Shown: positions 10,241-61,354 of the stretch, in pieces
Numbering within the stretch: the stretch's first letter is position 1
Layout of the letters: every line of letters begins with the position of its first letter
DNA from: Hydrurus foetidus
Taxonomy: Eukaryota
DNA: 64,000 bases
Assembly: GCA_900617105.1 (NCBI GenBank)
Contig: UYFQ01000006.1
Coordinates: 496,001 to 560,000, forward strand
Reading direction: 5' to 3'
Program-made: the position numbers and the translations under genes
Notes under the pieces: generated by a model
Told to the model about the DNA's origin: nothing
What the model saw: the letters and a program-made list of their open reading frames with translations, nothing else
Database searches by the model: none

Positions 10241-11620
10241 ATGTTGCGCACCTCCCTTGACCCCATCGTCGCTATCGCCACCGCCTCTGGGCGCGGAGCG
10301 GTTGGCATCATCCGCTTGTCTGGCCCCTCGTTGGGCGATCTCGTCCAGGTGCTTTGTGGCCGCGCACTGCGACCTCGTGAGGCCACTTACCTCAAGCTGC
10401 ACGCAGCCGATGGCAGTGTGATTGACCAGGGGCTGGCCCTCCACTTCCCCGCACCACACTCGTACACCGGTGAAGAAGTGCTGGAGCTGCAAGTCCACGG
10501 TGGTCCGGTCGTGCTGCAACTGCTGTTGGCCCGTTGCTTAGAGGCAGGTGCCACGCAGGGTCTGCGCTTGGCACGCCCTGGCGAGTTCACCGAGCGGGCT
10601 TTTTTGAACGACAAAATAGACCTCGCCCAAGCCGAGGCGATTGCCGATTTGATCGACGCCAGTACCGAGGCCGCCGCCCGCAGCGCCAGCCGCTCGCTCG
10701 CCGGTGAGTTCTCCAACGAAGTTCACCACTTGCGTGATGGCCTGATTCACCTGCGGATGCTGGTCGAGGCGACGCTGGATTTCCCAGAGGAAGAAATTGA
10801 CTTCCTGCGCAAGGCAGATGCGCACGGACAGCTATTGAATTTGCAGCAATCTCTGCGCCAATTGTTTGACCGTGCCCGCCAAGGTGCGTTGCTGCGCGAA
10901 GGCATCAAAGTAGTGATAGCCGGGCAACCGAACGCAGGCAAAAGCTCGCTGCTGAACGCCCTGGCTGGGGCCGAGCTGGCCATCGTCACCCCAGTAGCCG
11001 GCACCACCCGCGATGTGGTCACGCAGACGATTCAAATTGAAGGCATCCCTGTGCATGTGGTGGACACCGCCGGGCTGCGTAACAGCAGCGACGAGGTAGA
11101 GCAAATCGGCATTGCACGCGCTTGGGGACAGATTGAAAGCGCTGATGCCGTGCTTTTTTTGCATGATTTAACACGAAGAAATGCTATTGAATACATAGCT
11201 TCTGACGCTGATATAGCAAGCTCCATAGCCCAAAAACTTCCCCCTTCTGTGCCGGTGATCGACGTGTGGAACAAGCTCGACAGCGCAGGGGATGTATCGG
11301 ACCTGCCCGCCGGGCTTCATCTGTCCGCCAAAACAGGTGCAGGTCTGCAGACCTTGCGCCAACGCTTGCTGACCGTTGGCGGCTGGCAAACCCACCCCGA
11401 GGGCGTGTTCATCGCCCGCGAACGCCACCTGCATGCCTTGCGCCGCGCCCAAACCCATGTGGACGAAGCCATGGCACAGTTGAATGTAACCGTGCCTGCA
11501 TTAGATCTGCTGGCCGAGGAATTGCGCCTGTCTCAAAGCGCCTTGAACGACATTACCGGTGAATTCAGCGCTGATGATCTCTTGGGCGTGATTTTTTCTC
11601 AATTTTGCATTGGTAAATAG
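10241..11620 (+). CDS. mnmE: tRNA modification GTPase MnmE
   Basis: [35 protein letters not shown]-terminal FSQFCIGK. Confidence 0.98.
11183..11238 (+). repeat. Dispersed two-palindrome motif, copy inside mnmE
   Basis: GCTAT TGAATAC ATAGC TTCTGA CGCTGATATAGCAAGCTC; reads [13 protein letters not shown]. Confidence 0.75.
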
Positions 11621-18232: not shown

Positions 18233-18424
18233 TCAGTCTTCGCGGTAATTTCGCCACTCGCGCATGGCATTGCGCATCGTCAGTACCTGACGCTCGAATA
18301 CCGGGCAAGCCTTGCACGCAAACATGTGCAGCCGCAGCGCCACCCGATCAGGCACGCGCAAGGGCTGGTCTTCTTGGGCGATCAGCAAGGCCGCAACCTC
18401 TCTGCAAGTTCTGCGCAAGATCAT
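18233..18424 (-). CDS. Zinc-finger (zf-HC2/ZAS) anti-sigma factor, 63 aa
   Basis: C...HMFACKAC (HxxxCxxC); ATGA-coupled to the ECF sigma gene. Confidence 0.88.
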   Translation of the reverse strand: MILRRTCREVAALLIAQEDQPLRVPDRVALRLHMFACKACPVFERQVLTMRNAMREWRNYRED

Positions 18425-19005
18425 GGTGTAACTCGGCTTCCAAACCAGTTGAGCTCCAGGCATTCGCGCAAACGCAAACGGGCCCGGTGCAATTGAACAT
18501 ACAGGTTCGTCGTGGTGAGGTTGGTTTCCTTACAAATTTCTTCGGTTGACAGCTCCAACCACTCCCGCATCAAAAAAACCCGGCCCAAACCTGCGGGCAG
18601 CGCGTCGGTGCAAGCTTCCAGTATTTTGAAAAACTGCTGCGTGCGCAAATCTTGCTCGGGATTGCCCCAGTCTGAAGGCGCACAGGTGAAGTGGCCATCG
18701 CCCTTGAACATCAGCGCGTCCAGCTCCTCTGCGCCATCGCCATCGTCGCAGGTATCAAGCTGCACCTCCCGCGCACGTGAGCGCAGTTGGTCAATCACCT
18801 TGTGCTTGAGGATGCCTACCAGCCAGGTTTTGAGCTGCGATTTGCTCTCAAACGCTTGTGGCTTGCTAAGGGCTGCCAGCGTGGTTTCAGACACAGCGTC
18901 TTCAGCCCAACTGTCGTTGCGCAACTGCATGCGGGCAAAGCGCAGCAAGTAGCTGTGGTGGCTGGCGAGTTGCGCTTCAAAATCGGTAGCGGGGGCGTGG
19001 GACAT
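18421..19005 (-). CDS. ECF RNA polymerase sigma factor (TIGR02943-like)
   Basis: WAEDAVSET, LKTWLVGILKHK, VQLHRARLRLRECL. Confidence 0.92.
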   Translation of the reverse strand: MSHAPATDFEAQLASHHSYLLRFARMQLRNDSWAEDAVSETTLAALSKPQAFESKSQLKTWLVGILKHKVIDQLRSRAREVQLDTCDDGDGAEELDALMFKGDGHFTCAPSDWGNPEQDLRTQQFFKILEACTDALPAGLGRVFLMREWLELSTEEICKETNLTTTNLYVQLHRARLRLRECLELNWFGSRVTP

Positions 19006-19111
19006 TTGTGTGAAACCGTAGTTTTCAGCGATCATCGCACAGCAGAATGACCGGTTATCCACAGCTGTCCAGTCTTGGCGCATCGCTCAATTTAAAAAAT
19101 TTTCACACGCA

Positions 19112-19140
19112 TGTAAGAAGTTGGCCCATAAACTGACCAA
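19112..19140 (+). promoter_or_regulatory. Candidate ECF promoter of the DUF2282 operon
   Basis: TGTAAG-N17-GACCAA after an AT-rich stretch; GTAA-type -35 elements are typical of ECFs linked to DUF692 loci. Confidence 0.45.
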
Positions 19141-19204
19141 CGCTTAACCAGTCATTTTGCTGGTGAAACGTGCCTCTTTTCCTTTAACCCTTCAGGAGTT
19201 TTCC

Positions 19205-19486
19205 ATGAACCAACGTGCCCTTATCGCTGCTGCTGCCGCCACCGTGTTGTCTTCCATGCTGGTCTCTATGCCCGCAGCCGCCCAAGAGAAAGAAAAATGT
19301 TTCGGCATCGCCAAAATGGGCCAAAACGACTGCGCCAACCTCTCAGGCTCACATTCATGCGCCGGTCAGTCCAAGATGGACATGGGTGCTGACGAGTGGA
19401 AATATGTCGCCAAAGGTACTTGCGTCAGCATGAAAGGCATGACTGCTGAGCAAGTCAAAATGAAGATGACGGACAAAAAGAGCTGA
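19205..19486 (+). CDS. DUF2282 / bufferin BufA1-type RiPP precursor (93 aa)
   Basis: SD CAGGAG; Sec signal ending PAAA; EKCFGIAKMGQNDC...HSCAGQS...EWKYVAKGTC (four Cys). Confidence 0.9.
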   Translation: MNQRALIAAAAATVLSSMLVSMPAAAQEKEKCFGIAKMGQNDCANLSGSHSCAGQSKMDMGADEWKYVAKGTCVSMKGMTAEQVKMKMTDKKS

Positions 19487-19494
19487 TCGCATTT

Positions 19495-19550
19495 GCTTTT
19501 AATTCAATAGCAACTAACGCATATAAAACGTGGGCTAAGCTCAATGAGAC
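19495..19550 (+). repeat. Dispersed two-palindrome motif, intergenic copy
   Basis: GCTTT TAATTCA ATAGC AACTAA CGCATATAAAACGTGGGC TAAG. Confidence 0.75.
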
Positions 19551-19565
19551 AACTGAATTAGCCCC

Positions 19566-20471
19566 ATGAGAACGATCCCCAAAAGCGCCGGCATAGGCTG
19601 GCGCCACCCCCATTACGCCGCCCTGATGGACACCCGCCCGCCGCTGGGGTTCATCGAGGTGCATTCTGAAAACTTCTTCGGCGCAGGCGGTGCCGCCTTG
19701 GCCGTGCTGCAACAAGCCCGTGCCCACTACCCGCTCAGCCTGCACGGTGTCGGTTTGGGACTGGGTTCTGCCATCGGTATCGACGGCTGGCATCTCGACC
19801 AACTGGCTCAACTGGTTGAGCGCACCGAGCCTTGGCTGGTCAGCGACCACGCCTGCTTTGCCCGCGGTCATTTGGAGCAGGGCCAGCCCATCCACGCTGC
19901 CGATTTACTCCCCATCCCCTTCAACCGCGAGGCACTGGACGTGCTGTGCGCCAACGTGCAGCGCGTGCAAGACCGCTTACAGCAAAGCATCGCCGTCGAA
20001 AACCTGTCCGCCTATATCCGCTGGAACAGTGACGAGCAGACCGAGCCTGAATTCTTGGCGGCGCTCGCCAAGCGCACCGGCTGCAAGCTGCTGATCGACG
20101 TGAACAACATCTACGTCAACGCCCTGAACGCAGCAAACGACTCGAACGACTCTAAAACCATAGCTGCTAACGCCCAGCAGTATTGTTGTAATTGGCTGAA
20201 CAACATCCCCGCCAGCGCCGTCGCCGAGCTGCACCTCGCCGGGCACACCGACTGCGGCGATATCGTCATCGACGACCACAGCCGCCGCGTTTGCGATGCC
20301 GTCTGGCAGCTCTACAGCCACGCCCTGCGGTGCTTCGGCCCCGTGCCCACGTTGATTGAGTGGGACACCGACATCCCGCCGCTGCACGTCTTGCTCGACG
20401 AAGCCGCCCAAGCTGACCTTCTGACCAACAGCCTTGTCAACCTCCTCGCCACCGAAGTGCAAGCCCCATGA
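19566..20471 (+). CDS. DUF692 multinuclear non-heme iron oxidative enzyme (MNIO, BufB-like)
   Basis: [56 protein letters not shown]. Confidence 0.95.
20148..20203 (+). repeat. Dispersed two-palindrome motif, copy inside the DUF692 gene
   Basis: GACTC TAAAACC ATAGC TGCTAA CGCCCAGCAGTATTGTTG; left half-arm degenerate. Confidence 0.65.
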
Positions 20472-21280
20472 GCCCGCTCGCCGCCAGCCAGCAAGCCCTG
20501 CTGACCACCCTGTTCGCCTCTGGCCGCCACAGCGCAAAGATTGCTACTGAATTCATAGCTACTCACGCCCATCAGACAAGCAGAAGAGGCTTAAATGCCT
20601 ACCAAAGCAACGCCCACAGCCTCGCTGAGCGCAGCTTGCAGGCCGTCTACCCCGTGCTGGCCCAGTTGCTGGGTAACGAGAGCTTTGCCGCCTTCGCCCG
20701 CGCCTTCTGGCACGCCCACCCGCCCCAGCGCGGCGACTTGGCGCACTGGGGTGACGCACTCGCCGACTTCACCGCCGCCAGCCCGCAATTGGCCGATGTG
20801 CCCTACCTCGCCGATGTCGCCCGCGTCGAATGGGCCTTGCACCAAGCCGCCACCGCCCCAGACGCTGATGCCGACTTGGCCACCCTGCACCACCTGATGG
20901 AACAAGACCCCGCCGTGCTGCACCTGCACCTCGCCCCCGGCGTCAAGCTGGTACACAGCGACTGGCCCGTGGTCAGCATCGTCCATGCCCATGCGGTGGC
21001 AGACGGCGCAGCGCCCAACCTCAGCCACGCGCACGAACGGCTGCACAGCGGCACCACAGAAACCGCCCTGGTCTGGCGCCAAGGCTTCAAGCCCCAAGTC
21101 CGCGAAGCCCTGCCGGGTGAACCCGCTTTCGTAGCCGCGCTGCACGCCGGGCGCACCTTGGACGAGGCTTTCAGCGCCACCGAATCCGCAACATCCGCCG
21201 CCACCTTCGATTTCACCGTCTGGCTGCCCCAAGCTGTGTCCACCGGCCTGCTGCTGGCCGTGAACTGCATCGCACCTTGA
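20468..21280 (+). CDS. DUF2063 MNIO partner protein (BufC-like)
   Basis: GLNAYQSN...[13 protein letters not shown]...[15 protein letters not shown]-coupled to DUF692. Confidence 0.9.
20543..20598 (+). repeat. Dispersed two-palindrome motif, copy inside the DUF2063 gene
   Basis: GCTAC TGAATTC ATAGC TACTCA CGCCCATCAGACAAGCAG AAGAGGCTTAAATG. Confidence 0.85.
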
Positions 21281-21296
21281 ATTTTTGGAAAACCGT

Positions 21297-21782
21297 ATGA
21301 ACCTGACCTTGCAACGCGCCGTCAACCTCTGGAACCTGCTCAGCCACGGCCTGCGCAGCCTGCAAGCCCCCCTCAGCTTGGCTGCTCGGCTCTACGTCGC
21401 CCATGCGTTTTGGCTCTCAGGCCTGACCAAACTCCAAGACTGGGGCACCACGCTGGCGCTGTTTGCGGACGAGTACCACGTCCCCTTCTTGCCCACCCCC
21501 GTGGCGGCAGTGATGGGCACCGCAGGCGAGCTGGTGCTGCCCGTGCTGTTGGTGCTGGGCGTGGGGGGCCGCTTCGCCGCTCTGGGCTTGTCCGTGGTGA
21601 ACGCCATCGCCGTCATCAGCCTCACGGACATTGCCCCGCTGGCGCTGCAACAGCATGTGCTGTGGGGGGTCTTGCTGGCCGGGCTCGCGGCGTTTGGCCC
21701 CGGTGCCTGGGCGGCAGAGCGTTGGGTGTGGCCGTGGTTGCAAGCGCGGCTGGGTCAAAGCAAGGGTCACTCCGGCGCATGA
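21297..21782 (+). CDS. DoxX family membrane protein (BufD-like)
   Basis: ARLYVAHAFWLSGLTK, ELVLPVLLVLG, GPGAWA. Confidence 0.9.
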   Translation: MNLTLQRAVNLWNLLSHGLRSLQAPLSLAARLYVAHAFWLSGLTKLQDWGTTLALFADEYHVPFLPTPVAAVMGTAGELVLPVLLVLGVGGRFAALGLSVVNAIAVISLTDIAPLALQQHVLWGVLLAGLAAFGPGAWAAERWVWPWLQARLGQSKGHSGA

Positions 21783-23035
21783 GCTGGTCTTCAGAGATGG
21801 TTTGCCCAGAGACCACATCCACCAACATCGCGTTACTGGCTGCGCGCTTCAGCGACGTTCGCCAGCACACCCTCGCGCTGGTCGAGGGCTTGAGCGCGGA
21901 AGACTGCATGGTGCAGTCCATGCCCGATGCCAGCCCGATCAAATGGCACCTCGCCCACACCACCTGGTTTTTTGAAACCTTTGTGCTCGAACCTGCCGAG
22001 TCGGCACAGGCGACGGGTTTTGTGCCTTTTGATGCAGCCTTTCGGGTGCTGTTCAACTCCTACTATGTCGGTGTTGGTGAGCGCCATCCCCGTGCGGCAC
22101 GCGGGGTGCTGTCGCGCCCCAGTTTTGCACAGGTGCTGGCCTATCGCCACGATGTGGAAGCCCGCATCCACAGTCTGCTCGCTGGCCCTGTGCTGGCAGT
22201 TGAGCTGCTGGCCTTGTTGACTTTGGGCATGCACCACGAGCAGCAGCACCAAGAGCTGATATTGACGGATGCCCTGCACCACTTCGCCAGCAATCCGCTG
22301 CTGCCCACTTACCGTTCCTCTCGCGCGCACGCCCCCCAGGCCGCAGCCTCAAGCAGCCCCGGTTTTGCGGCCTTCCAAGGCGGTGCGGTAGAGATCGGTC
22401 ACAGCGGCCAAGGCTTTGCTTTTGACAACGAATCCCCCCGCCATGCCGTGTGGCTGACCCCGTTCGCACTGGCCCGCCACTGCGTCACCCAAGGGGACTA
22501 CCTGCTGTTTGTCACCCATGGCGGCTATACGCGCCCCGAGTTGTGGTTGTCGGATGGCTGGGATACCGTGGTGAGCGAAGGCTGGCAGGGCCCGCTGTAT
22601 TGGCGCTTGACCGGTGCGGCATCTGCATCTTGCGCGTCTGCGTGGCAGGTCTTTGGTCTGGACGGCTTGCAAGCCCTCGACCCCGATTTACCTGTTTGCC
22701 ACCTCAGCTACTACGAAGCCGATGCCTATGCCCGCTGGGCTGGTGCCCGCCTGCCTACCGAGGCTGAATGGGAACATGCCGCACAAGCGCAGCTTTTCCC
22801 CTTGCCCTGCCCCGTCTGGCAATGGACGCAAAGTGCCTACCTGCCTTACCCCGGCTTTGCACCTGCACCCGGTGCTGTGGGTGAATACAACGGCAAGTTC
22901 ATGGTCAACCAAATGGTGTTGCGCGGTGGCTCTGTGGCCACCCCGGCAGGGCACATCCGCAGCAGCTACCGGAATTTCTTCCCTCCTTCCGCACGCTGGC
23001 AGTTTGCTGGTTTACGGCTGGCCCACAACCTGTAA
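21779..23035 (+). CDS. egtB: Ergothioneine biosynthesis sulfoxide synthase
   Basis: DinB_2 QSMPDASPIKWHLAHTTWFFE, FNSYY, HEQQHQE; FGE-sulfatase FDNE, EYNGKFM, YRNFF; ATGA overlap with doxX. Confidence 0.92.
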   Translation: MSWSSEMVCPETTSTNIALLAARFSDVRQHTLALVEGLSAEDCMVQSMPDASPIKWHLAHTTWFFETFVLEPAESAQATGFVPFDAAFRVLFNSYYVGVGERHPRAARGVLSRPSFAQVLAYRHDVEARIHSLLAGPVLAVELLALLTLGMHHEQQHQELILTDALHHFASNPLLPTYRSSRAHAPQAAASSSPGFAAFQGGAVEIGHSGQGFAFDNESPRHAVWLTPFALARHCVTQGDYLLFVTHGGYTRPELWLSDGWDTVVSEGWQGPLYWRLTGAASASCASAWQVFGLDGLQALDPDLPVCHLSYYEADAYARWAGARLPTEAEWEHAAQAQLFPLPCPVWQWTQSAYLPYPGFAPAPGAVGEYNGKFMVNQMVLRGGSVATPAGHIRSSYRNFFPPSARWQFAGLRLAHNL

Positions 23036-23059
23036 CCGTTGACCTAAAGCGAATCCACC

Positions 23060-24067
23060 ATGCCCTCTTTACGCCATAACCTGGCTTTGGTGACAGCGTC
23101 AACCAACCCGAACACAGCTGTCGCCACAACCGTTATCCCCCACAGTGAATTTGCCCGCGACCTGATCGCCGCCTTGTCCGCCCCGCCGCACAGCATCTCG
23201 CCCAAATACTTTTACGACGCAGCCGGCTCGCAACTGTTTGACCGCATTTGCGACTTGCCTGAGTACTACCCCACCCGCACCGAGCTGGGCATCCTCACCC
23301 GCCACGCCGCCGAGATGGCCGCGCTGATGGGGCCAGCAGCGGAGCTGGTGGAGTTTGGTGCCGGTTCGCTGCAAAAAGTACGTCTGCTGCTCGATGCGAT
23401 GGACGCACCGGCGGGCTACGTGCCTATCGACATTTCCGGCGACCATTTGGCGGATGCTGTCCGCACGCTAACGCACGACTACCCCCTGCTGCATGTACAG
23501 CCGCTGGTAGCCGACTACACCGCTGCACTCACCTTGCCCGCCAAGCGGCAGGGCGCAGGGCAGCGCATCGGCTTCTTTCCCGGCTCCACCATAGGCAACT
23601 TTGCGCCCGACGAGGCGCTGCGCTTTCTGCGCATGGCTGCTGGCGTGTTGCAAGGTGGTGCCCTGCTGCTGGGGGCTGACCTTATCAAAGACCCCGCCAT
23701 CCTTCACGCGGCCTACAGCGATGCGCAAGGTGTCACCGCAGCCTTCAACCTGAACGTGCTGGCCCGTGCCAACCGCGAATTGGGTGCCGACTTTGACCTC
23801 ACCCAGTTTGCCCACAGCGCTTTCTACAACCCACCCCTCCAGCGTATTGAGATGCACCTGATGGCACTGCAGCACCAGCTTGTGCGTGTCTGTGGCCGCA
23901 GCTTCTCGCTGCCTGAGGGCTTCTGCCTGCACACCGAAAATTCGCACAAATTCACTCTGGATGGCTTGCAGGCGCTGGCGGTGCAAGCGGGTTTCATCCC
24001 AGGCCCGGTGTGGACAGACCCGGCGCGCCTCTTCAGCGTGCATTGGCTGCAAGCGCCTGTGCGCTGA
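23060..24067 (+). CDS. egtD: L-histidine N-alpha-methyltransferase
   Basis: PKYFYD, LPEYYPTRTE, FFPGSTIGNF, AAFNLN, HTENSHKF. Confidence 0.95.
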   Translation: MPSLRHNLALVTASTNPNTAVATTVIPHSEFARDLIAALSAPPHSISPKYFYDAAGSQLFDRICDLPEYYPTRTELGILTRHAAEMAALMGPAAELVEFGAGSLQKVRLLLDAMDAPAGYVPIDISGDHLADAVRTLTHDYPLLHVQPLVADYTAALTLPAKRQGAGQRIGFFPGSTIGNFAPDEALRFLRMAAGVLQGGALLLGADLIKDPAILHAAYSDAQGVTAAFNLNVLARANRELGADFDLTQFAHSAFYNPPLQRIEMHLMALQHQLVRVCGRSFSLPEGFCLHTENSHKFTLDGLQALAVQAGFIPGPVWTDPARLFSVHWLQAPVR

Positions 24068-24144
24068 GCAAAAAGCAAAAAACGCTGGGTACACTGGGGG
24101 TTTTCCCTTGACCAGCGTGGTTCACATCCCGCTGCCCTACCTGC

Positions 24145-24705
24145 ATGGACGCTTTCCTTGTCTCCACCGGCATCGTTGCCCTCGCTGAAATAGGCGACAA
24201 AACCCAGCTCTTGGCCCTCGTCCTCGCGGCCCGTTTCCGCAAACCCTGGCCCATCGTTCTCGGTATTTTGGTAGCCACCCTCGCCAACCACGGCTTGGCC
24301 GGTGCGGTAGGCGCTTGGGTCACCACCCTCCTCGGCCCCACCACCCTGCGTTGGGTGGTGGGCCTCTCGTTCATCGCTATGGCGGGGTGGATGCTGATTC
24401 CTGACAAGCTCGACGACGTGGAAGACAACAAAACCGCCCGCTTTGGCGTCTTCGGCACCACCTTGGTGTTGTTTTTCCTGGCCGAAATGGGCGACAAAAC
24501 CCAAATCGCCACCGTCATGCTGGCGGCCAAATACCAGTCGTTTATAGCGGTGGTGGCGGGCACCACCCTGGGCATGATGATCGCCAACGCGCCCGTGGTG
24601 TGGCTGGGCGAAAAAGTGACCAAACTGATCCCCTTGCCTGTGGTTCACAAGCTCTCTGCTGCGGTGTTTTTGGTGCTGGGGGTGCTGGCTATCGCGTCGG
24701 CTTGA
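24145..24705 (+). CDS. TMEM165/GDT1 (UPF0016) Ca2+/Mn2+ transporter
   Basis: Two AE(I/M)GDKTQ motifs. Confidence 0.95.
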   Translation: MDAFLVSTGIVALAEIGDKTQLLALVLAARFRKPWPIVLGILVATLANHGLAGAVGAWVTTLLGPTTLRWVVGLSFIAMAGWMLIPDKLDDVEDNKTARFGVFGTTLVLFFLAEMGDKTQIATVMLAAKYQSFIAVVAGTTLGMMIANAPVVWLGEKVTKLIPLPVVHKLSAAVFLVLGVLAIASA

Positions 24706-25054: not shown

Positions 25055-26593
25055 ATGATCAACCCAATGAGTTTCAATCTGCAGCCGTCCGTGACATCAA
25101 CGATAAGGCCAGCTGCCAACGCTGGTTTGCAAACCAGCCCGAGCACTGACAGCAGCCCCTCTCCCTCCTTTGCACCATCCTCAACCCAGGTCAGCATCTC
25201 GACGCAAGGGATGGAAGCCAGTCTGCGGACAACGAACAACAGCTATACCGACCCAACCCTTGCACTGAGAAGTACTGATCCTGACTCCGTGGTGAACAAG
25301 GCCACCCAAGCTATTCCAGTGGACTACAAAAAAGGCGAGGCAGAGCGGCAAAGATTAAACGAAATCTACTTTGCTGCACCGGCACGGAAGGCCTCAAACG
25401 CGACCTTCACCCTGGCTAACCGAATTGCGGGGCTGCAAAAAGTCATTGATAAAACCCATCCTGAGTTGTCCGAAGCCTCCTGGGATTTTGTGCTGAAAGA
25501 CGGCAAACTTGAGGTAACGGGGAATGTCAGCGCCAGTGGCAAACAGTGGCTAGAAGGCAAACTCAATGCAGATCCGAAAATGGTGCAAGCGGCCAAAGAT
25601 GTGTACTCATCGACGGTCACAACCTACCAATACACGGCCGAGAACACGTCGCTTCAAGATATTGGCCATGGTGTTCGCGGGTACTTTGACAAAGTTGCAG
25701 ACCAGATCAATGGCAAGATCAACATGCGAAACCTCGTCAAAAACGAATTGGGGGTTGATGCCCTGCATGGGATTTTCAAATCAGGCACGTCGTCTAGCGT
25801 TGTGCTGGATCACATTGCCCGGCAGCACCTCTCGGTCAGCCGCACCCCGCCGGTATTACCCACGGCAGATGGCGCGGAAGTAAGCATCTCGGCGCAAGGG
25901 ATGGCGGCGAGTCTGGCGGATACCTCGCAAAGTCTTGCCAGCAGCGGGACTTCAACAAGCAGTGCTTCTGATTCGAGTGCATGGGTTAACACTCCATTAA
26001 AAATCATTGATATTGACTACAAAAAAGGCGAAGCTGAGCGGTTCAGAGTGGGTGAAACCTATGAAGCCGCTCCAATGCGAAAGGCTTCCAATGCGACATT
26101 CTCATTGGCCAACCGAATTTCCGCGCTGCAAAAAGTCATTGATAAAACCCATCCTGAGTTGTCCCAAGCCTCCTGGGATTTCGTGTTGAAAGACGGCAAG
26201 CTTGAGGTAACGGGGAATGTCAGCGCCAGTGGCAAGCAATGGTTGGAACACAAACTCAATGCAGATCCGAAAATGGTGCAGGCGGCCAAAGACTTGTATT
26301 CATCGGCGGTCACCGCCTACCAATACACGGCCGACAATACACGGCTGAAAGATGTTGGTGCAGGCATTCACGGGTACTTTGACAGAGTTGCCGACCATAT
26401 CAATGGCAAGATCAACATGCGAAACCTCGTCAAAAACGAATTGGGGGTTGATGCCCTGCATGGGGTTTTCAAATCAGGAACCTCGTCTAGCGTCGTGCTG
26501 GATCATATTGCCCGACAACACCTCTCGGTCAGCCGCAATCCACCGGTATTGGCCACGGCGGATAGCACAGCATCCACAGCGTCAGCTTTGTAG
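25055..26593 (+). CDS. Hypothetical protein built from two tandem ~230-aa units
   Basis: 512-aa ORF with SD GGGAG; Ser/Thr/Pro-rich N-terminus; duplicated DYKKGEAER...HLSVSR block. Confidence 0.85.
   Translation: MINPMSFNLQPSVTSTIRPAANAGLQTSPSTDSSPSPSFAPSSTQVSISTQGMEASLRTTNNSYTDPTLALRSTDPDSVVNKATQAIPVDYKKGEAERQRLNEIYFAAPARKASNATFTLANRIAGLQKVIDKTHPELSEASWDFVLKDGKLEVTGNVSASGKQWLEGKLNADPKMVQAAKDVYSSTVTTYQYTAENTSLQDIGHGVRGYFDKVADQINGKINMRNLVKNELGVDALHGIFKSGTSSSVVLDHIARQHLSVSRTPPVLPTADGAEVSISAQGMAASLADTSQSLASSGTSTSSASDSSAWVNTPLKIIDIDYKKGEAERFRVGETYEAAPMRKASNATFSLANRISALQKVIDKTHPELSQASWDFVLKDGKLEVTGNVSASGKQWLEHKLNADPKMVQAAKDLYSSAVTAYQYTADNTRLKDVGAGIHGYFDRVADHINGKINMRNLVKNELGVDALHGVFKSGTSSSVVLDHIARQHLSVSRNPPVLATADSTASTASAL
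25322..26563 (+). repeat. Intragenic direct repeat (25322-25870 versus 26015-26563, offset 693 bp)
   Basis: Long near-identical stretches, e.g. CTGCAAAAAGTCATTGATAAAACCCATCCTGAGTTGTCC in both units. Confidence 0.95.
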
Positions 26594-26715: not shown

Positions 26716-26751
26716 AACCCGGCTTCGTTTTTAGCGATGCTGGGTTTTTTT
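26716..26751 (+). terminator. Intrinsic terminator in the metX leader (riboswitch expression platform)
   Basis: AACCCGGC-T-TCG...CGA-T-GCTGGGTT followed by a T run. Confidence 0.8.
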
Positions 26752-26799
26752 ATGCACGTTTCAAAACACGCCTCAAAACACGCTTTTGCACACGCTCCT

Positions 26800-28545
26800 A
26801 TGCTCGCCGTTCCACAGTTCATGTCCTTCGCCGCACCGCTTGCCCTGCAAAGCGGTGCCTCCATCCGCGCCTATACGCTGGCCTATGAGACCTACGGCAC
26901 GCTGAATGCCAACAAGTCCAACGCCGTGCTGGTTTGCCACGCGCTCAACGCCTCGCACCATGTGGCGGGCGTGTACGAAGGCCAGCCCAAGAGCGAAGGC
27001 TGGTGGGACAACATGATTGGCCCCGGCAAGCCGCTGGACACGGACAAATTTTTCGTCATCGGCATCAACAATCTGGGCTCGTGCTTTGGCTCCACCGGGC
27101 CGATGCACACCCACCCGGACACAGGCCGCATCTACGGTGCCGACTTCCCCGTGGTGACGGTGGAAGACTGGGTGAACGCCCAAGCTAATCTGCTCGATGA
27201 ACTTGGCATCCAAACCCTGGCCGCCGTGATGGGAGGCAGCCTGGGCGGCATGCAGGCGCTTAGCTGGACATTGCAATACCCTGACCGTGTGCGCCACGCC
27301 GTGGTGATCGCCAGCGCCCCCAACCTGACGGCAGAAAACATCGCCTTCAACGAAGTCGCCCGCCGAGCCATCGTCACCGACCCGGACTTCCACGGTGGAA
27401 ACTTTTACGAGCACAGCGTGATCCCCAAACGCGGCCTGCGCATCGCCCGCATGATCGGCCACATCACCTACCTGAGCGATGACGTGATGAACGAGAAGTT
27501 CGGACGACAGTTGCGGGACGGCGATGCGTACAAGTATTCAACCCAAGACGTTGAATTCCAGATCGAAAGCTACCTGCGCCATCAAGGCGACAAGTTCAGC
27601 GAAACCTTCGATGCCAACACCTACCTGCTTATCACCCGGGCGCTGGACTACTTCGATCCAGCACGCCAGCACAACGCCAGCCTGAGCGCCGCGTTGGCAA
27701 AAGCGAAGGCCAAGTTCCTGCTCGTCAGCTTCACTACCGATTGGCGCTTCTCCCCCAAACGCAGCCGCGAAATCGTCAAAGCCCTGCTCGACAACCGCCG
27801 CGACGTGAGCTACGCCGAGATTGATGCGCCGCACGGTCACGATGCCTTTTTACTCGATGATGCCCGCTACATGGCCTTGGTACGCTCTTATTTTGAGAGC
27901 ATTGATGCAACACTGAACCTGTCCACTACCGCAGCGTCCGCCCTCAAGGCGCATTCCAGCCCGGCCCCCACCCACCAGTCCATCGCCAACCTCGTCCCCT
28001 CGCAGTCCCGCGTGCTCGATTTAGGCTGCGGCGATGGCCGCTTGCTGGCCCACCTGCAAGCCCACCGCGCCTGCACCGGCTACGGCATCGAAATCAGCGA
28101 CGCCCATGTGCTGGCCTGCGTGCAAGCCGGGGTGAATGTCATCCAACTCAACTTGGAAGAAGGTCTTTCGCTGTTTGAAGACACCTCGTTCGACGTGGTG
28201 CTGCAAGTCGATACCCTGCCCCACCTGCGCAACGCCGAAACCATGCTGCAAGAAACCGCCCGCGTAGGCCGCACCGGCATCGTCGCCTTCCCTAATTTCG
28301 CCCACTGGCCCAACCGCCTGAGCGTGCTGCAAGGCCGCATGCCCGTTACCAAACGTCTGCCCTACCAGTGGTACGACACACCCAACATCCGCGTGGGCAC
28401 GTTCAAGGATTTTGAAGCGCTGGCGCAGAAGAACGGCTTGAAGCTGCTCGATGCTTTTGGTCTGCAAGACGGCGTGGAAGTGCGCTGGCTGCCGAACGCG
28501 CGGGCGGGGACGGCAGTGTTTCGGTTCACGCGGGTTGGCGCGTAA
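26800..28545 (+). CDS. metX: Fused homoserine O-acyltransferase MetX and methionine biosynthesis protein MetW
   Basis: Met[32 protein letters not shown]; in-frame Met[30 protein letters not shown]. Confidence 0.92.
27845..27900 (-). repeat. Dispersed two-palindrome motif, reverse copy at the end of the MetX domain
   Basis: ATGCCCGCTACATGGCCT TGGTAC GCTCT TATTTTG AGAGC. Confidence 0.7.
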
Positions 28546-28566: not shown

Positions 28567-28661
28567 TCGGGAACACAGCCTCCCGAATCCTTTACGGATA
28601 GACGGTGTCCCGTCCAAGTGCTGGCAACATCCCCTTGGGGGAATTTCGCCTATGGACACCG
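28567..28661 (+). ncRNA. Structured chrB leader, candidate chrB-a/chrB-b-type cis-regulatory RNA
   Basis: Hairpins TCGGGA/TCCCGA, ATCC/GGAT, GACGG/CCGTC, TCCCC/GGGGA; CGGTGTCC (28603-28610) complements GGACACCG (28654-28661) at the start codon. Confidence 0.5.
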
Positions 28662-29548
28662 CCATGAATGCTTCTGCTTCGTCAAGCCTCGCTGCTTCTG
28701 ATTTTTCTGATTTTTCTCTTTCCCCTGCGCAATTTGCCGCCCGTTTAGGCCGCTCTGATGCCCCACTGGTGCTCGATGTGCGCCGCCTTCCCCGTTTCAC
28801 GACCAGCCCGCAGTTGTTGCCTACCGCGCAGTACTGTGCGCCTGAAGACGTGCAGGCTTTCGCGGCCCGCCAGCCACCACGTGAGGTGCTGGTGTACTGC
28901 GTTTACGGCCACGAAGTCGGCCGTGAGGCTGCGGCCACTTTGCGTGCAGCAGGGTGGGATGCCCGCTATCTGGTGGGTGGGCTTGAAGGCGGTCAGCCGG
29001 AGGTGGATTCGGTTGAATTGTTGGCTGAATTGAAAGCCCAAAACCTGCCCCGTGTCACCAAACGTTTTGGCGTTGACGGCCTGAGCCCTTCGCGCTGGAT
29101 CACCCGCGAGCGGCCCAAGATTGACCGCATCGCTTGCCCTTGGCTGGTTCGCCGCTTCATCGACGCGCAGGCCGTGTTCTTTTACGTACCCAAGCCCGAG
29201 GTGTTTGACGAAGCCACCAAGCGCGGGGCCATTCCCTATGACATCCCCGGCGCACCGCTGGAGCACGACGGTGCGCTGTGCAGCTTCGACACCTTTTTGC
29301 GGGCGTTCGGGCTGCGCTTGCCCGCGCTCGACCTGCTGGCCTGCATCGTGCGCGGCGCGGACACCGATCAGCTGGACCTGGCCGCGCAGTCGGCTGGTTT
29401 GCTCGCGGTGTCACTGGGCTTTTCTCGCCTCTACCCCACCGACGATCACGCCATGCTGGACGCGATGATGCCGGTGTACGACGCGCTTTACGCTTGGTGC
29501 AGCGACCGCGTTGCCGCCACCGATGAGCGTCACAACTGGAAGCCCTGA
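28652..29548 (+). CDS. chrB: Chromate resistance protein ChrB type (rhodanese plus ChrB C-terminal domain)
   Basis: VLDVRR...VYCVYGHEVG rhodanese; WITRERPKIDRIACPWLVRRFID; IVRGADT. Confidence 0.88.
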   Translation: MDTAMNASASSSLAASDFSDFSLSPAQFAARLGRSDAPLVLDVRRLPRFTTSPQLLPTAQYCAPEDVQAFAARQPPREVLVYCVYGHEVGREAAATLRAAGWDARYLVGGLEGGQPEVDSVELLAELKAQNLPRVTKRFGVDGLSPSRWITRERPKIDRIACPWLVRRFIDAQAVFFYVPKPEVFDEATKRGAIPYDIPGAPLEHDGALCSFDTFLRAFGLRLPALDLLACIVRGADTDQLDLAAQSAGLLAVSLGFSRLYPTDDHAMLDAMMPVYDALYAWCSDRVAATDERHNWKP

Positions 29549-60091: not shown

Positions 60092-61354
60092 ATGAGCACT
60101 GCTTTCCCTCCCCCTTCCAGTACCGGCATCGCCCGCTATGTACAGGGCAAAATCACCACTGCTTTGCAAGACACGCGGGTGGTACTGATCGTTGGGCCAC
60201 GGCAGGCGGGTAAGACCACGCTGGCCCGGCTCTATGCAAGCCGAGACCGCCCCTACCTCACGTTGGACGACCCAGCCACCTTGGCTGCAGCGCGATCAGA
60301 CCCCACCGGGTTCGTGCGGGGCTTGAAGCAAGCCGTCATCGACGAAGTGCAGCGCGTGCCAGACCTGTTGCTCGCCATCAAAGAAAGTGTGGACAAAGAC
60401 CAAACGCCGGGGCGCTTCTTGTTGACAGGGTCTACCAACCTGATGGCCATGCCTATCGTGGCCGACTCGTTGGCAGGCAGGCTCGAAGTCATCACCCTGC
60501 TGCCCTTCGCCCAAGCTGAGCTCGCGGGAACCCAGGGTGATCTGTTGGACCGGCTGTTTGACGGTGCCGGTTTGCCCAGCGTGGTCAGCCCCTTGGTGGG
60601 CGACGATTTGATGGACTGCGTGCTCAAGGGCGGCTACCCCGAAGCGCTGCGCCGCACCAACGTCGGCCGCCGCCAGACTTGGCTGCAAGATTATGTGGCC
60701 CTCATTTTGGACCGGGATGTGCGTGACCTCGCCAACATTGACCAGCTCGACCGCATGCCACGTCTGCTCGATGTGCTGGCCGCCCACGCCGGGCAGTTGG
60801 TCAACCACAGCAGCTATGGCGCGGCCCTCGGACTGACCGCACCCACGGCACAGAAATATGTCGGTCTCTTGGAACGCTTGTTTCTGACGCAGCATGTACC
60901 GCCTTGGTCGAGCAACGCCCTCAGCCGCCTCATGAAAACACCCAAACTCCATTTTGTAGACACCGGTTTGCTGGCAGCGTTGCAAGGCGTTACCGCCCCC
61001 CAACTGCACAAAGACCGCACCGCCTATGGCCCGCTGCTGGAGAACTTCGTCGTGTCCGAAGTCCTCAAACTCACCACTTGGTCGGAGAAGCGGCTGCGCA
61101 TTTCACACTTTCGAACCAAAGAGCAAGACGAGGTAGATTTGGTTTTAGAAGATCGGCGCGGGCGCGTCATCGGCATTGAGGTCAAAGCTTCAGCCACGGT
61201 GCGAGGGCAAGACCTGCGCGGCCTGCGCAAACTGCAAGAGGCTGTGGGCGACAAATTTGTGCAGGGCTTGGTGCTGCACGACCATGACCGCATCACACCG
61301 TTTGACGAAAAACTGCACGCGGCCCCGGTGTCGCTGCTGTGGCAAGCGGCGTAG
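60092..61354 (+). CDS. AAA_14 ATPase with DUF4143 and C-terminal PD-(D/E)xK-like domain
   Basis: GPRQAGKTT, IDEVQ, LTGS, GGYP, KLHFVDTG, EVDLV...IEVK. Confidence 0.92.
   Translation: MSTAFPPPSSTGIARYVQGKITTALQDTRVVLIVGPRQAGKTTLARLYASRDRPYLTLDDPATLAAARSDPTGFVRGLKQAVIDEVQRVPDLLLAIKESVDKDQTPGRFLLTGSTNLMAMPIVADSLAGRLEVITLLPFAQAELAGTQGDLLDRLFDGAGLPSVVSPLVGDDLMDCVLKGGYPEALRRTNVGRRQTWLQDYVALILDRDVRDLANIDQLDRMPRLLDVLAAHAGQLVNHSSYGAALGLTAPTAQKYVGLLERLFLTQHVPPWSSNALSRLMKTPKLHFVDTGLLAALQGVTAPQLHKDRTAYGPLLENFVVSEVLKLTTWSEKRLRISHFRTKEQDEVDLVLEDRRGRVIGIEVKASATVRGQDLRGLRKLQEAVGDKFVQGLVLHDHDRITPFDEKLHAAPVSLLWQAA

Follow-up and report, generated by a model that had tools for sequence, protein, structure and literature searches.

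A bufferin gene cluster followed by ergothioneine genes, and a predicted ECF promoter that recurs upstream of egtB in other lineages

We analyzed a 64,000-nt stretch of contig UYFQ01000006.1 (positions 496,001 to 560,000, forward strand; assembly GCA_900617105.1, Hydrurus foetidus), hereafter the window, in which a bufferin cluster, bufABCD (buf1), is followed directly by the ergothioneine genes egtB and egtD. The six genes are likely co-transcribed from a predicted extracytoplasmic function (ECF) sigma factor promoter at position 19112. The same promoter motif recurs upstream of egtB in other lineages, where its distribution suggests that ergothioneine synthesis has likely been recruited repeatedly into an ECF293 redox/metal regulon. 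Neither the promoter motif nor the recurrence of egtB under it is found in an earlier sequence-only reading of this DNA, which had described the gene block and proposed that it forms one stress operon. The features that carry the argument are as follows.

18233-18424, minus strand: soluble zinc-binding anti-sigma (ZAS) factor, probably 63 aa (NF052368, score 56 against a cut-off of 50)
18421-19035, minus strand: ECF sigma factor, ECF293-like (TIGR02943/PRK12520; TIGR02943 score 225 against a cut-off of 162)
18505-18534, minus strand: predicted ECF promoter within the sigma gene, before the anti-sigma gene (position weight matrix [PWM] score 18.9 bits)
19112-19141, plus strand: predicted ECF promoter of the buf-egt unit, TGTAAGAAGT-N12-TGACCAAC (26.6 bits, the top score in the window)
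19205-19486, plus strand: bufA, DUF2282 Buf1 precursor (PF10048, 82 bits)
19566-20471, plus strand: bufB, MNIO (DUF692) bufferin maturase (NF050167 BufB, score 321 against a cut-off of 310)
20468-21280, plus strand: bufC, DUF2063 partner protein (PF09836)
21297-21782, plus strand: bufD, DoxX membrane protein (PF07681), its stop codon overlapping the egtB start
21779-23035, plus strand: egtB, type II sulfoxide synthase, intact (TIGR03440, score 527 against a cut-off of 360)
23060-24067, plus strand: egtD, histidine N-alpha-methyltransferase, intact (TIGR03438, score 391 against a cut-off of 291)

The motif before bufA reads TGTAAGAA-N-GAC(C/T)AA and resembles the Neisseria sigmaE consensus, GTMAGBWTT-N12/13-CGTCTAAH (PMC2893595). 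Scanning was done with a PWM trained on bufA upstream regions, from which the near relative L001 (genome G001) was excluded. A site of at least 14 bits precedes bufA in 59 of 76 loci and in none of 228 shuffles, the best of which scored 7.1. Only three sites in the 64 kb reach 10 bits, namely the two listed above and one at 60889 (minus strand, 13.4 bits). The sigma-internal site (18534) is also found in L001, L086, and L087 and inside distant sigma genes, and from its place before the anti-sigma gene it would likely provide negative feedback. Between 19480 and 24150, the PWM detected no ECF site (best score -5.1) and a sigma-70 scan returned no site, while the plus-strand gaps from bufA to egtD hold no terminator-like sites, the plus-strand matches there falling inside genes. 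With a conserved ECF site ahead of bufA and no other down to 24150, read-through from 19112 would be the simplest route to expression of egtBD, which leaves the single operon of the sequence-only reading likely.

By its family matches, the core locus is an ordinary Buf1 bufferin cluster, with a four-Cys DUF2282 precursor, a BufB-type MNIO, and adjoining DUF2063 and DoxX genes. Profile matches thus placed all six genes where the sequence-only reading had them and upheld its naming of the first four as a bufferin locus. The Cys residues of BufA lie at positions 32, 43, 52, and 73 (spacing 11/9/21), and its N-terminus, judged by eye only, is signal-peptide-like, with a basic start, a hydrophobic core, and an AxA site. 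The coding sequence of bufC contains, in frame, a short, imperfect palindrome rich in AT (20543-20595) that is shared by L001; it recurs at 11183, and similar stretches are found at ~20150-20190 and 19495-19545. We take it to resemble a repetitive extragenic palindromic (REP)-type element of its family.

The last two genes encode the ergothioneine core enzymes EgtB and EgtD, as previously proposed, both proteins scoring above their profile cut-offs. The ATGA overlap of doxX and egtB (21779-21782) and the 24-nt gap between egtB and egtD (23036-23059) can be read directly from the sequence, again as described before. The best Protein Data Bank match of EgtB is the type II EgtB of Chloracidobacterium thermophilum (CthEgtB; E 7e-125), and alignment with it revealed that S-P, WHLAH, NSYY, HPR..RG, HEQQH, YNGKF, and RNFF are retained. 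The composite motif of type II enzymes, xSHHYYRRHQHxYNFFx, comprises a YY loop, a His metal triad, and NFF (PMC11030361); we judged it present in the window protein by sequence alignment and not by a residue-by-residue comparison with a structure. Identity as the selenoneine synthase SenA was rejected, as the SenA hidden Markov model (HMM) score of 371.5 falls below the cut-off of 420 and the NSYY loop is present. The dN/dS ratio is 0.18 for egtB against G001 and, for egtD, 0.15 against G001 and 0.075 against G007, showing that the egtB and egtD genes of the window are under purifying selection; an egtB comparison with L086 covered 34 codons and was disregarded. The first ATG of egtB is retained in the window, G001, and G007, and the second (M7) is not. 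Contigs from three of four other public runs (records 13, 20, and 28) span the doxX-egtB junction; the adjacency is therefore not an assembly artefact. In run X3, one joint skips egtB (21745 to 23143, side 28 letters) and egtB coverage is low, a signal too weak to be used. In six loci elsewhere (L271, L275, L276, L176, L179, and L309), a candidate C-S lyase gene lies convergent to and downstream of the egt genes; its product is presumably pyridoxal phosphate-dependent and MetB-like or MalY/PatB-like.

The sigma gene is divergent from the bufA-egtD block and is followed by the gene for a small soluble ZAS anti-sigma factor. This arrangement, too, agrees with the sequence-only reading, given the TIGR02943 and NF052368 matches and the low hydropathy of the anti-sigma factor. 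Two starts are candidates for the sigma gene, 19035 and 19005. The protein has a sigma2 domain (residues 41-105) and a sigma4 domain (154-205) joined by a long linker, with three Cys in its C-terminal part. The anti-sigma factor carries the motif C7-X25-H-X3-C-X2-C, and its highest 19-residue hydropathy is 0.73, leaving no hydrophobic segment. It most likely starts at 18424, because the resulting 63 aa resemble most homologs (mostly 63-73 aa) and this start overlaps the sigma stop in an ATGA; an alternative open reading frame (ORF) from the upstream ATG at 18463 would encode 76 aa. ECF293 (formerly ECF13) is characterized by a soluble anti-sigma factor at position +1 with the ZAS pattern C/H-X23-26-H-X3-C-X2-C (PMC7826278, PMC7907618) as well as by a lengthened sigma2-sigma4 linker and a sigma4 region with three Cys (PMC7826278 supplement). 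The anti-sigma motif fits this pattern, and the pair fits ECF293, a call made from these traits with TIGR02943/PRK12520 as a proxy for a group HMM or tree. We rejected the ECF16 SigF/NrsF type, which needs a six-helix DUF1109 membrane anti-sigma factor, as the window encodes a zf-HC2-like protein of 63-76 aa with no hydrophobic segment.

Evidence that the promoter reaches egtB in other lineages came from 227 other egtB loci (147 GTDB regions and 80 metagenome contigs, 162 of them with at least 3.5 kb upstream). Across their 5.24 Mb, both strands included, 12 sites score at least 14 bits, a threshold set from the shuffle null of the bufA upstream scan. Six of the 12 lie on the sense strand in the 400 nt preceding egtB, although these stretches make up 1.7% of the sequence scanned and would be expected to hold that share of the sites (binomial p=2e-8, or 4e-4 when one clade is counted once). 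The five GTDB genomes with these sites all encode a TIGR02943 sigma factor and an MNIO, each carries the motif inside its sigma genes as well, and egtD lies elsewhere in them. An order-level sample of 401 genomes, many incomplete, held 128 with egtB and 178 with the TIGR02943 sigma factor. Here, a site of at least 12 bits within 260 nt upstream of egtB or DUF427-egtB was found at 6 of 45 loci in sigma-bearing genomes and at 0 of 77 in genomes without the sigma factor; at 14 bits the counts were 5 and 0, and the antisense control upstream of egtB gave 0 and 0. A looser promoter pattern (8/45 against 1/77) was designed post hoc, and G016, which gave one further loose hit, and G253 lack the sigma factor; it was not taken as the main test.

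The ECF-linked EgtB proteins fall into four groups: the window and G001; G119, G168, G254, and G212; G330; and the DUF427-egtBD loci L176 and G302. In an EgtB tree of 34 of 149 rows, from which L328 (a fragment on a long branch), L235, and L270 were left out, a single clade of the nine ECF-linked proteins was rejected (approximately unbiased [AU] test, p=3e-72; at least four changes forced). These would comprise one insertion into a bufferin operon, that of the window, and three direct promoter gains. The ECF site before egtB may, alternatively, be old and have been lost many times. Exact genome-wide matches to the motif are rare (4, 7, 1, 7, and 3, against 1, 1, 1, 2, and 1 in controls). The sole match in G119 is the site before egtB, and those of G001, G007, and G017 precede msrP, DUF1223, a redoxin gene, buf1, and buf2, targets resembling the Neisseria and Haemophilus regulons (PMC2893595, PMC7907618). 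The msrP site occurs in G001 and G007 and the DUF1223 site in G001, G007, and G017 (L350, L351, L355, L361, and L368); both genes are predicted regulon members in relatives of the window.

Two of the other groups have features of their own. Seven exact ECF sites lie within 14 kb around the TIGR02943 sigma gene of G302 (G302:C16:127234-141147; L349, L353, L358, L362, and L365-L369). They precede arsS, whose TIGR04167 score exceeds the cut-off, a gene resembling those of arsenite methyltransferases that stays below its cut-offs, the gene of a DUF2282 precursor, and genes labeled by eye as thioredoxin-, cytochrome c-, and nucleoside phosphorylase-like; DUF427-egtBD lies 6-8 kb from this cluster. 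In G119, G254, G168, and G212 (L342, L343, L344, and L347), the sigma gene runs in the same direction as buf1, and bufA would be driven from the site within it; another ECF sigma gene lies just upstream, and tblastn detected no small ZAS anti-sigma gene in these loci.

The buf-egt layout itself is restricted to one genus-level clade. Among the best 80 of 585 bufB relatives, 65 were informative (at least 1.5 kb downstream), and egt genes follow bufB in one, L001, whose cluster is 81-95% identical to that of the window. No buf gene or doxX lies near egtB in any of the 227 other egtB loci. Conservation of the adjacency in related genomes, on which the sequence-only reading had made its proposal depend, and hence a conserved two-product operon are not supported. 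In the same bufB survey, the sigma gene flanks 49 of 63 informative loci and the anti-sigma gene likewise 49 of 63, while amt occupies the slot after doxX at 24 of 65 and a variety of genes fill it at others. Within the genus of G001, two of four genomes (G001 and G007) have the layout; in both, the egt genes lie between buf1 and a second bufferin cluster, buf2, which has its own ECF site. In G017, buf1 and buf2 stand in tandem and egtBD is on another contig, an arrangement that suggests insertion of the egt genes between the two clusters. Lineage-specific capture of egtBD by a bufferin cluster is supported. The corresponding position in the window is

24058-24084, plus strand: junction where the sister genomes hold buf2, which is absent from the window.

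DUF427 accompanies egtB-egtD, before or after, in 6 of the 227 loci (for example, L086:12388-12670, L093:9870-10151, and L176:7692-7982) and in G007. In a further genome of the genus (L327, G006:C1:22000-35372), all that is left of the cluster is a diverged bufB (51%), flanked by rbp and amt; bufA, bufC, doxX, and the sigma gene were not detected, so the buf cluster decays there, too.

We consider it reasonably probable that egtBD, lying behind buf1, are expressed with bufABCD from 19112, so that bufferin and ergothioneine are made together under oxidative or metal stress. The ancestor of the clade would have gained an egtB-egtD(-DUF427) module by insertion between buf1 and buf2. Oxidation or metal displacement at the Cys/His zinc site of the anti-sigma factor would free the sigma factor, which would then transcribe bufABCD-egtBD, msrP, and the anti-sigma gene. 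BufB and BufC would turn the two central Cys residues of BufA, CysII and CysIII, into 5-thiooxazoles, and the peptide would bind copper in the periplasm, as in Caulobacter. Ergothioneine would be made in the cytoplasm by EgtD and EgtB together with a C-S lyase encoded elsewhere, and would buffer oxidants and Cu(I) there. The link would be one of co-regulation, not shared chemistry, and the window layout would be one local solution of a recurring recruitment, three other EgtB clades carrying the promoter directly. The wider proposition, that ECF293-type sigma factors run a previously undescribed Burkholderiales defense regulon of bufferins, MsrP, and thioredoxin-like proteins into which ergothioneine was recruited at least four times independently, we hold at about even chances. 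If it is true, ergothioneine would be a stress-inducible cytoplasmic copper and oxidant buffer paired with a periplasmic metallophore.

Several observations weigh against these proposals. The sequences used to train the PWM came from upstream of bufA. The comparison of genomes with and without the sigma factor (Fisher p=0.002) used a 260-nt window and a 12-bit threshold picked post hoc, after the hits were known, and ignores kinship, four of the six hits belonging to one clade. No site precedes egtB at 39 of the 45 loci in sigma-bearing genomes, and egtB and the sigma gene co-occur no more often than by chance across the 401 genomes (odds ratio 0.73, p=0.16). In each of the two sister genomes with the layout, one egt gene is broken: egtB of G007 has 54-nt and 741-nt deletions with short repeats at their ends, and egtD of G001 lacks 2 nt, perhaps through an assembly error. 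Neither genome yielded a further full copy. A 21-nt gap replaces the doxX/egtB overlap in G007, and since bufB/bufC and sigma/anti-sigma also overlap by ATGA, the overlap is weak evidence. The operon holds no C-S lyase gene, although no search aimed at one was made. HOCl induces the Haemophilus RpoE2/HrsE system (PMC7907618). The inducing signal is nonetheless uncertain, because meningococcal sigmaE is unresponsive to H2O2 or diamide (PMC2893595) and control of gig by the adjacent sigma factor RpoQ could not be demonstrated in Cupriavidus metallidurans (PMC13492112).

Neutral hitch-hiking, in which egtBD merely occupy a variable slot and are reached by accidental read-through, giving co-regulation without selective value, would fit the frequent change of slot content after doxX, the decay of the layout in both genomes of the genus that have it, and the lost overlap in G007. 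We regard it as unlikely, as egtB and egtD have been under purifying selection in place across a dS of ~1 with no promoter of their own found, and egtB genes of three other clades stand behind the same predicted promoter. Control of egtBD by a promoter of another type inside doxX, which would make the genes adjacent and not co-regulated, appears quite improbable: no intergenic space precedes egtB in the window or G001, and neither a sigma-70 site nor a terminator-like site was found before it. The scans behind that judgment covered sigma-70 and the present ECF motif only, a single transcript would have to span ~5 kb, and egtBD of Sphingopyxis are under EcfG-type control (PMC7083833). Biochemical coupling into one two-product pathway, with ergothioneine serving bufferin maturation, DoxX redox cycling, or copper hand-over, is very improbable despite the overlap of doxX and egtB and the capacity of ergothioneine to reduce Cu(II) and bind Cu(I) stably in vitro (PMC13603105), since egt genes are missing from 64 of the 65 informative bufB loci, buf1ABCD is sufficient to protect E. 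coli from copper (bioRxiv 10.1101/2024.03.18.585515), and the sister genomes retain buf1 and buf2 despite broken egt genes.

Downstream of the unit lies a neighbor not shown to be part of it:

24145-24705, plus strand: GDT1/TMEM165 gene, an older neighbor.

The sequence-only reading had cited TMEM165 and chrBA as supporting metal context. Both belong to an older gene order around bufB (GDT1 in 25 and chrBA in 18 of the 80 surveyed loci), and chrB has its own Rfam chrB-b RNA (28567-28624), the real chrB start probably being near 28670; they lend the proposal no support. No Mn riboswitch was found before GDT1 in the window, L001, L005, or L015. Farther along, 25055-26593 (plus strand) encodes a 512-aa protein of two near-identical halves with no family match above cut-off, in whose slot L001 has a different 688-aa gene, and metX and metW are fused in one ORF (26737-28545), as in many relatives.

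None of the single parts of this system is new, and egtBD are already on record as controlled by an ECF sigma factor, EcfG (PMC7083833). Among the top-ranked papers of literature listings, which covered openly available texts, none linked bufferin/MNIO clusters or ECF293 to egtB; PMC12452194, in its main text and two of its supplements, mentions neither egt genes nor ergothioneine and lists no egt neighbors. The repeated placing of egtB under a predicted ECF promoter is new and testable. The role and inducers of ergothioneine in Gram-negative producers are, to our knowledge, poorly known, the EcfG regulon of a sphingomonad being the one such regulon that came up in our searches. If an oxidation- or metal-sensing ECF293 sigma factor co-activates egtB, bufferins, and MsrP across lineages, ergothioneine would gain a named regulator, a promoter, and a testable signal, and many bufferin clusters might respond to thiol oxidation or hypochlorite, not to periplasmic copper sensing. 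The window operon alone is a local arrangement of lesser importance than this regulon-level result.

Several known systems come close to that of the window. The EcfG general stress regulon of Sphingopyxis granuli includes egtB-egtD (PMC7083833) and so likewise ties an ECF sigma factor to the two-gene ergothioneine core; it involves another ECF group and signaling cascade, and the accessible text mentions no bufferin link. The type II EgtB of C. thermophilum, together with EgtD, provides the enzymatic counterpart, with the metal His residues, NSYY loop, and NFF conserved in the window EgtB, whereas the window egtB sits under a bufferin promoter and its lyase gene is not linked. The regulator is closest to that of Neisseria, where sigmaE/MseR controls NMB2140-2145 and msrAB (PMC2893595), and Haemophilus, where a DoxX/COG3220/DUF2063 cluster and msrAB are under RpoE2/HrsE control upon HOCl exposure (PMC7907618). 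Both share with the window a small soluble ZAS anti-sigma factor at +1, control of a DoxX/DUF692/DUF2063 cluster, a GTAAG-type -35 element with a related -10 element and a 12-13-nt spacer, and a methionine sulfoxide reductase target (msrAB there, msrP predicted here). They differ in that the window precursor is DUF2282 rather than COG3767 as in Haemophilus, in that the window sigma gene is divergent and has an internal site before the anti-sigma gene, and in that the accessible parts of both papers report no ergothioneine genes in these regulons. In gene content, the window matches Caulobacter vibrioides bufA1BCD and Cupriavidus metallidurans gigPABT, with the same order of DUF2282 precursor, BufB-type MNIO, DUF2063, and DoxX and a precursor Cys spacing of 11/9/21 against 11/8/21 there; buf2 of the sister genomes, with its own predicted site, is a further likeness. 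The Caulobacter bufferin loci, whose product has been shown to bind copper, use SigF/NrsF (bioRxiv 10.1101/2024.03.18.585515). The contrast with this system drawn in the sequence-only reading is real, as the regulator in the window is an ECF293-like sigma factor with a soluble ZAS protein and not SigF/NrsF or RpoQ/RsqA (ECF16, membrane anti-sigma), but a regulator of this kind is not novel, having been published for Neisseria and Haemophilus (PMC2893595, PMC7907618). What sets the window apart from the Caulobacter and Cupriavidus Buf1 clusters is, in addition, the appended egtBD.

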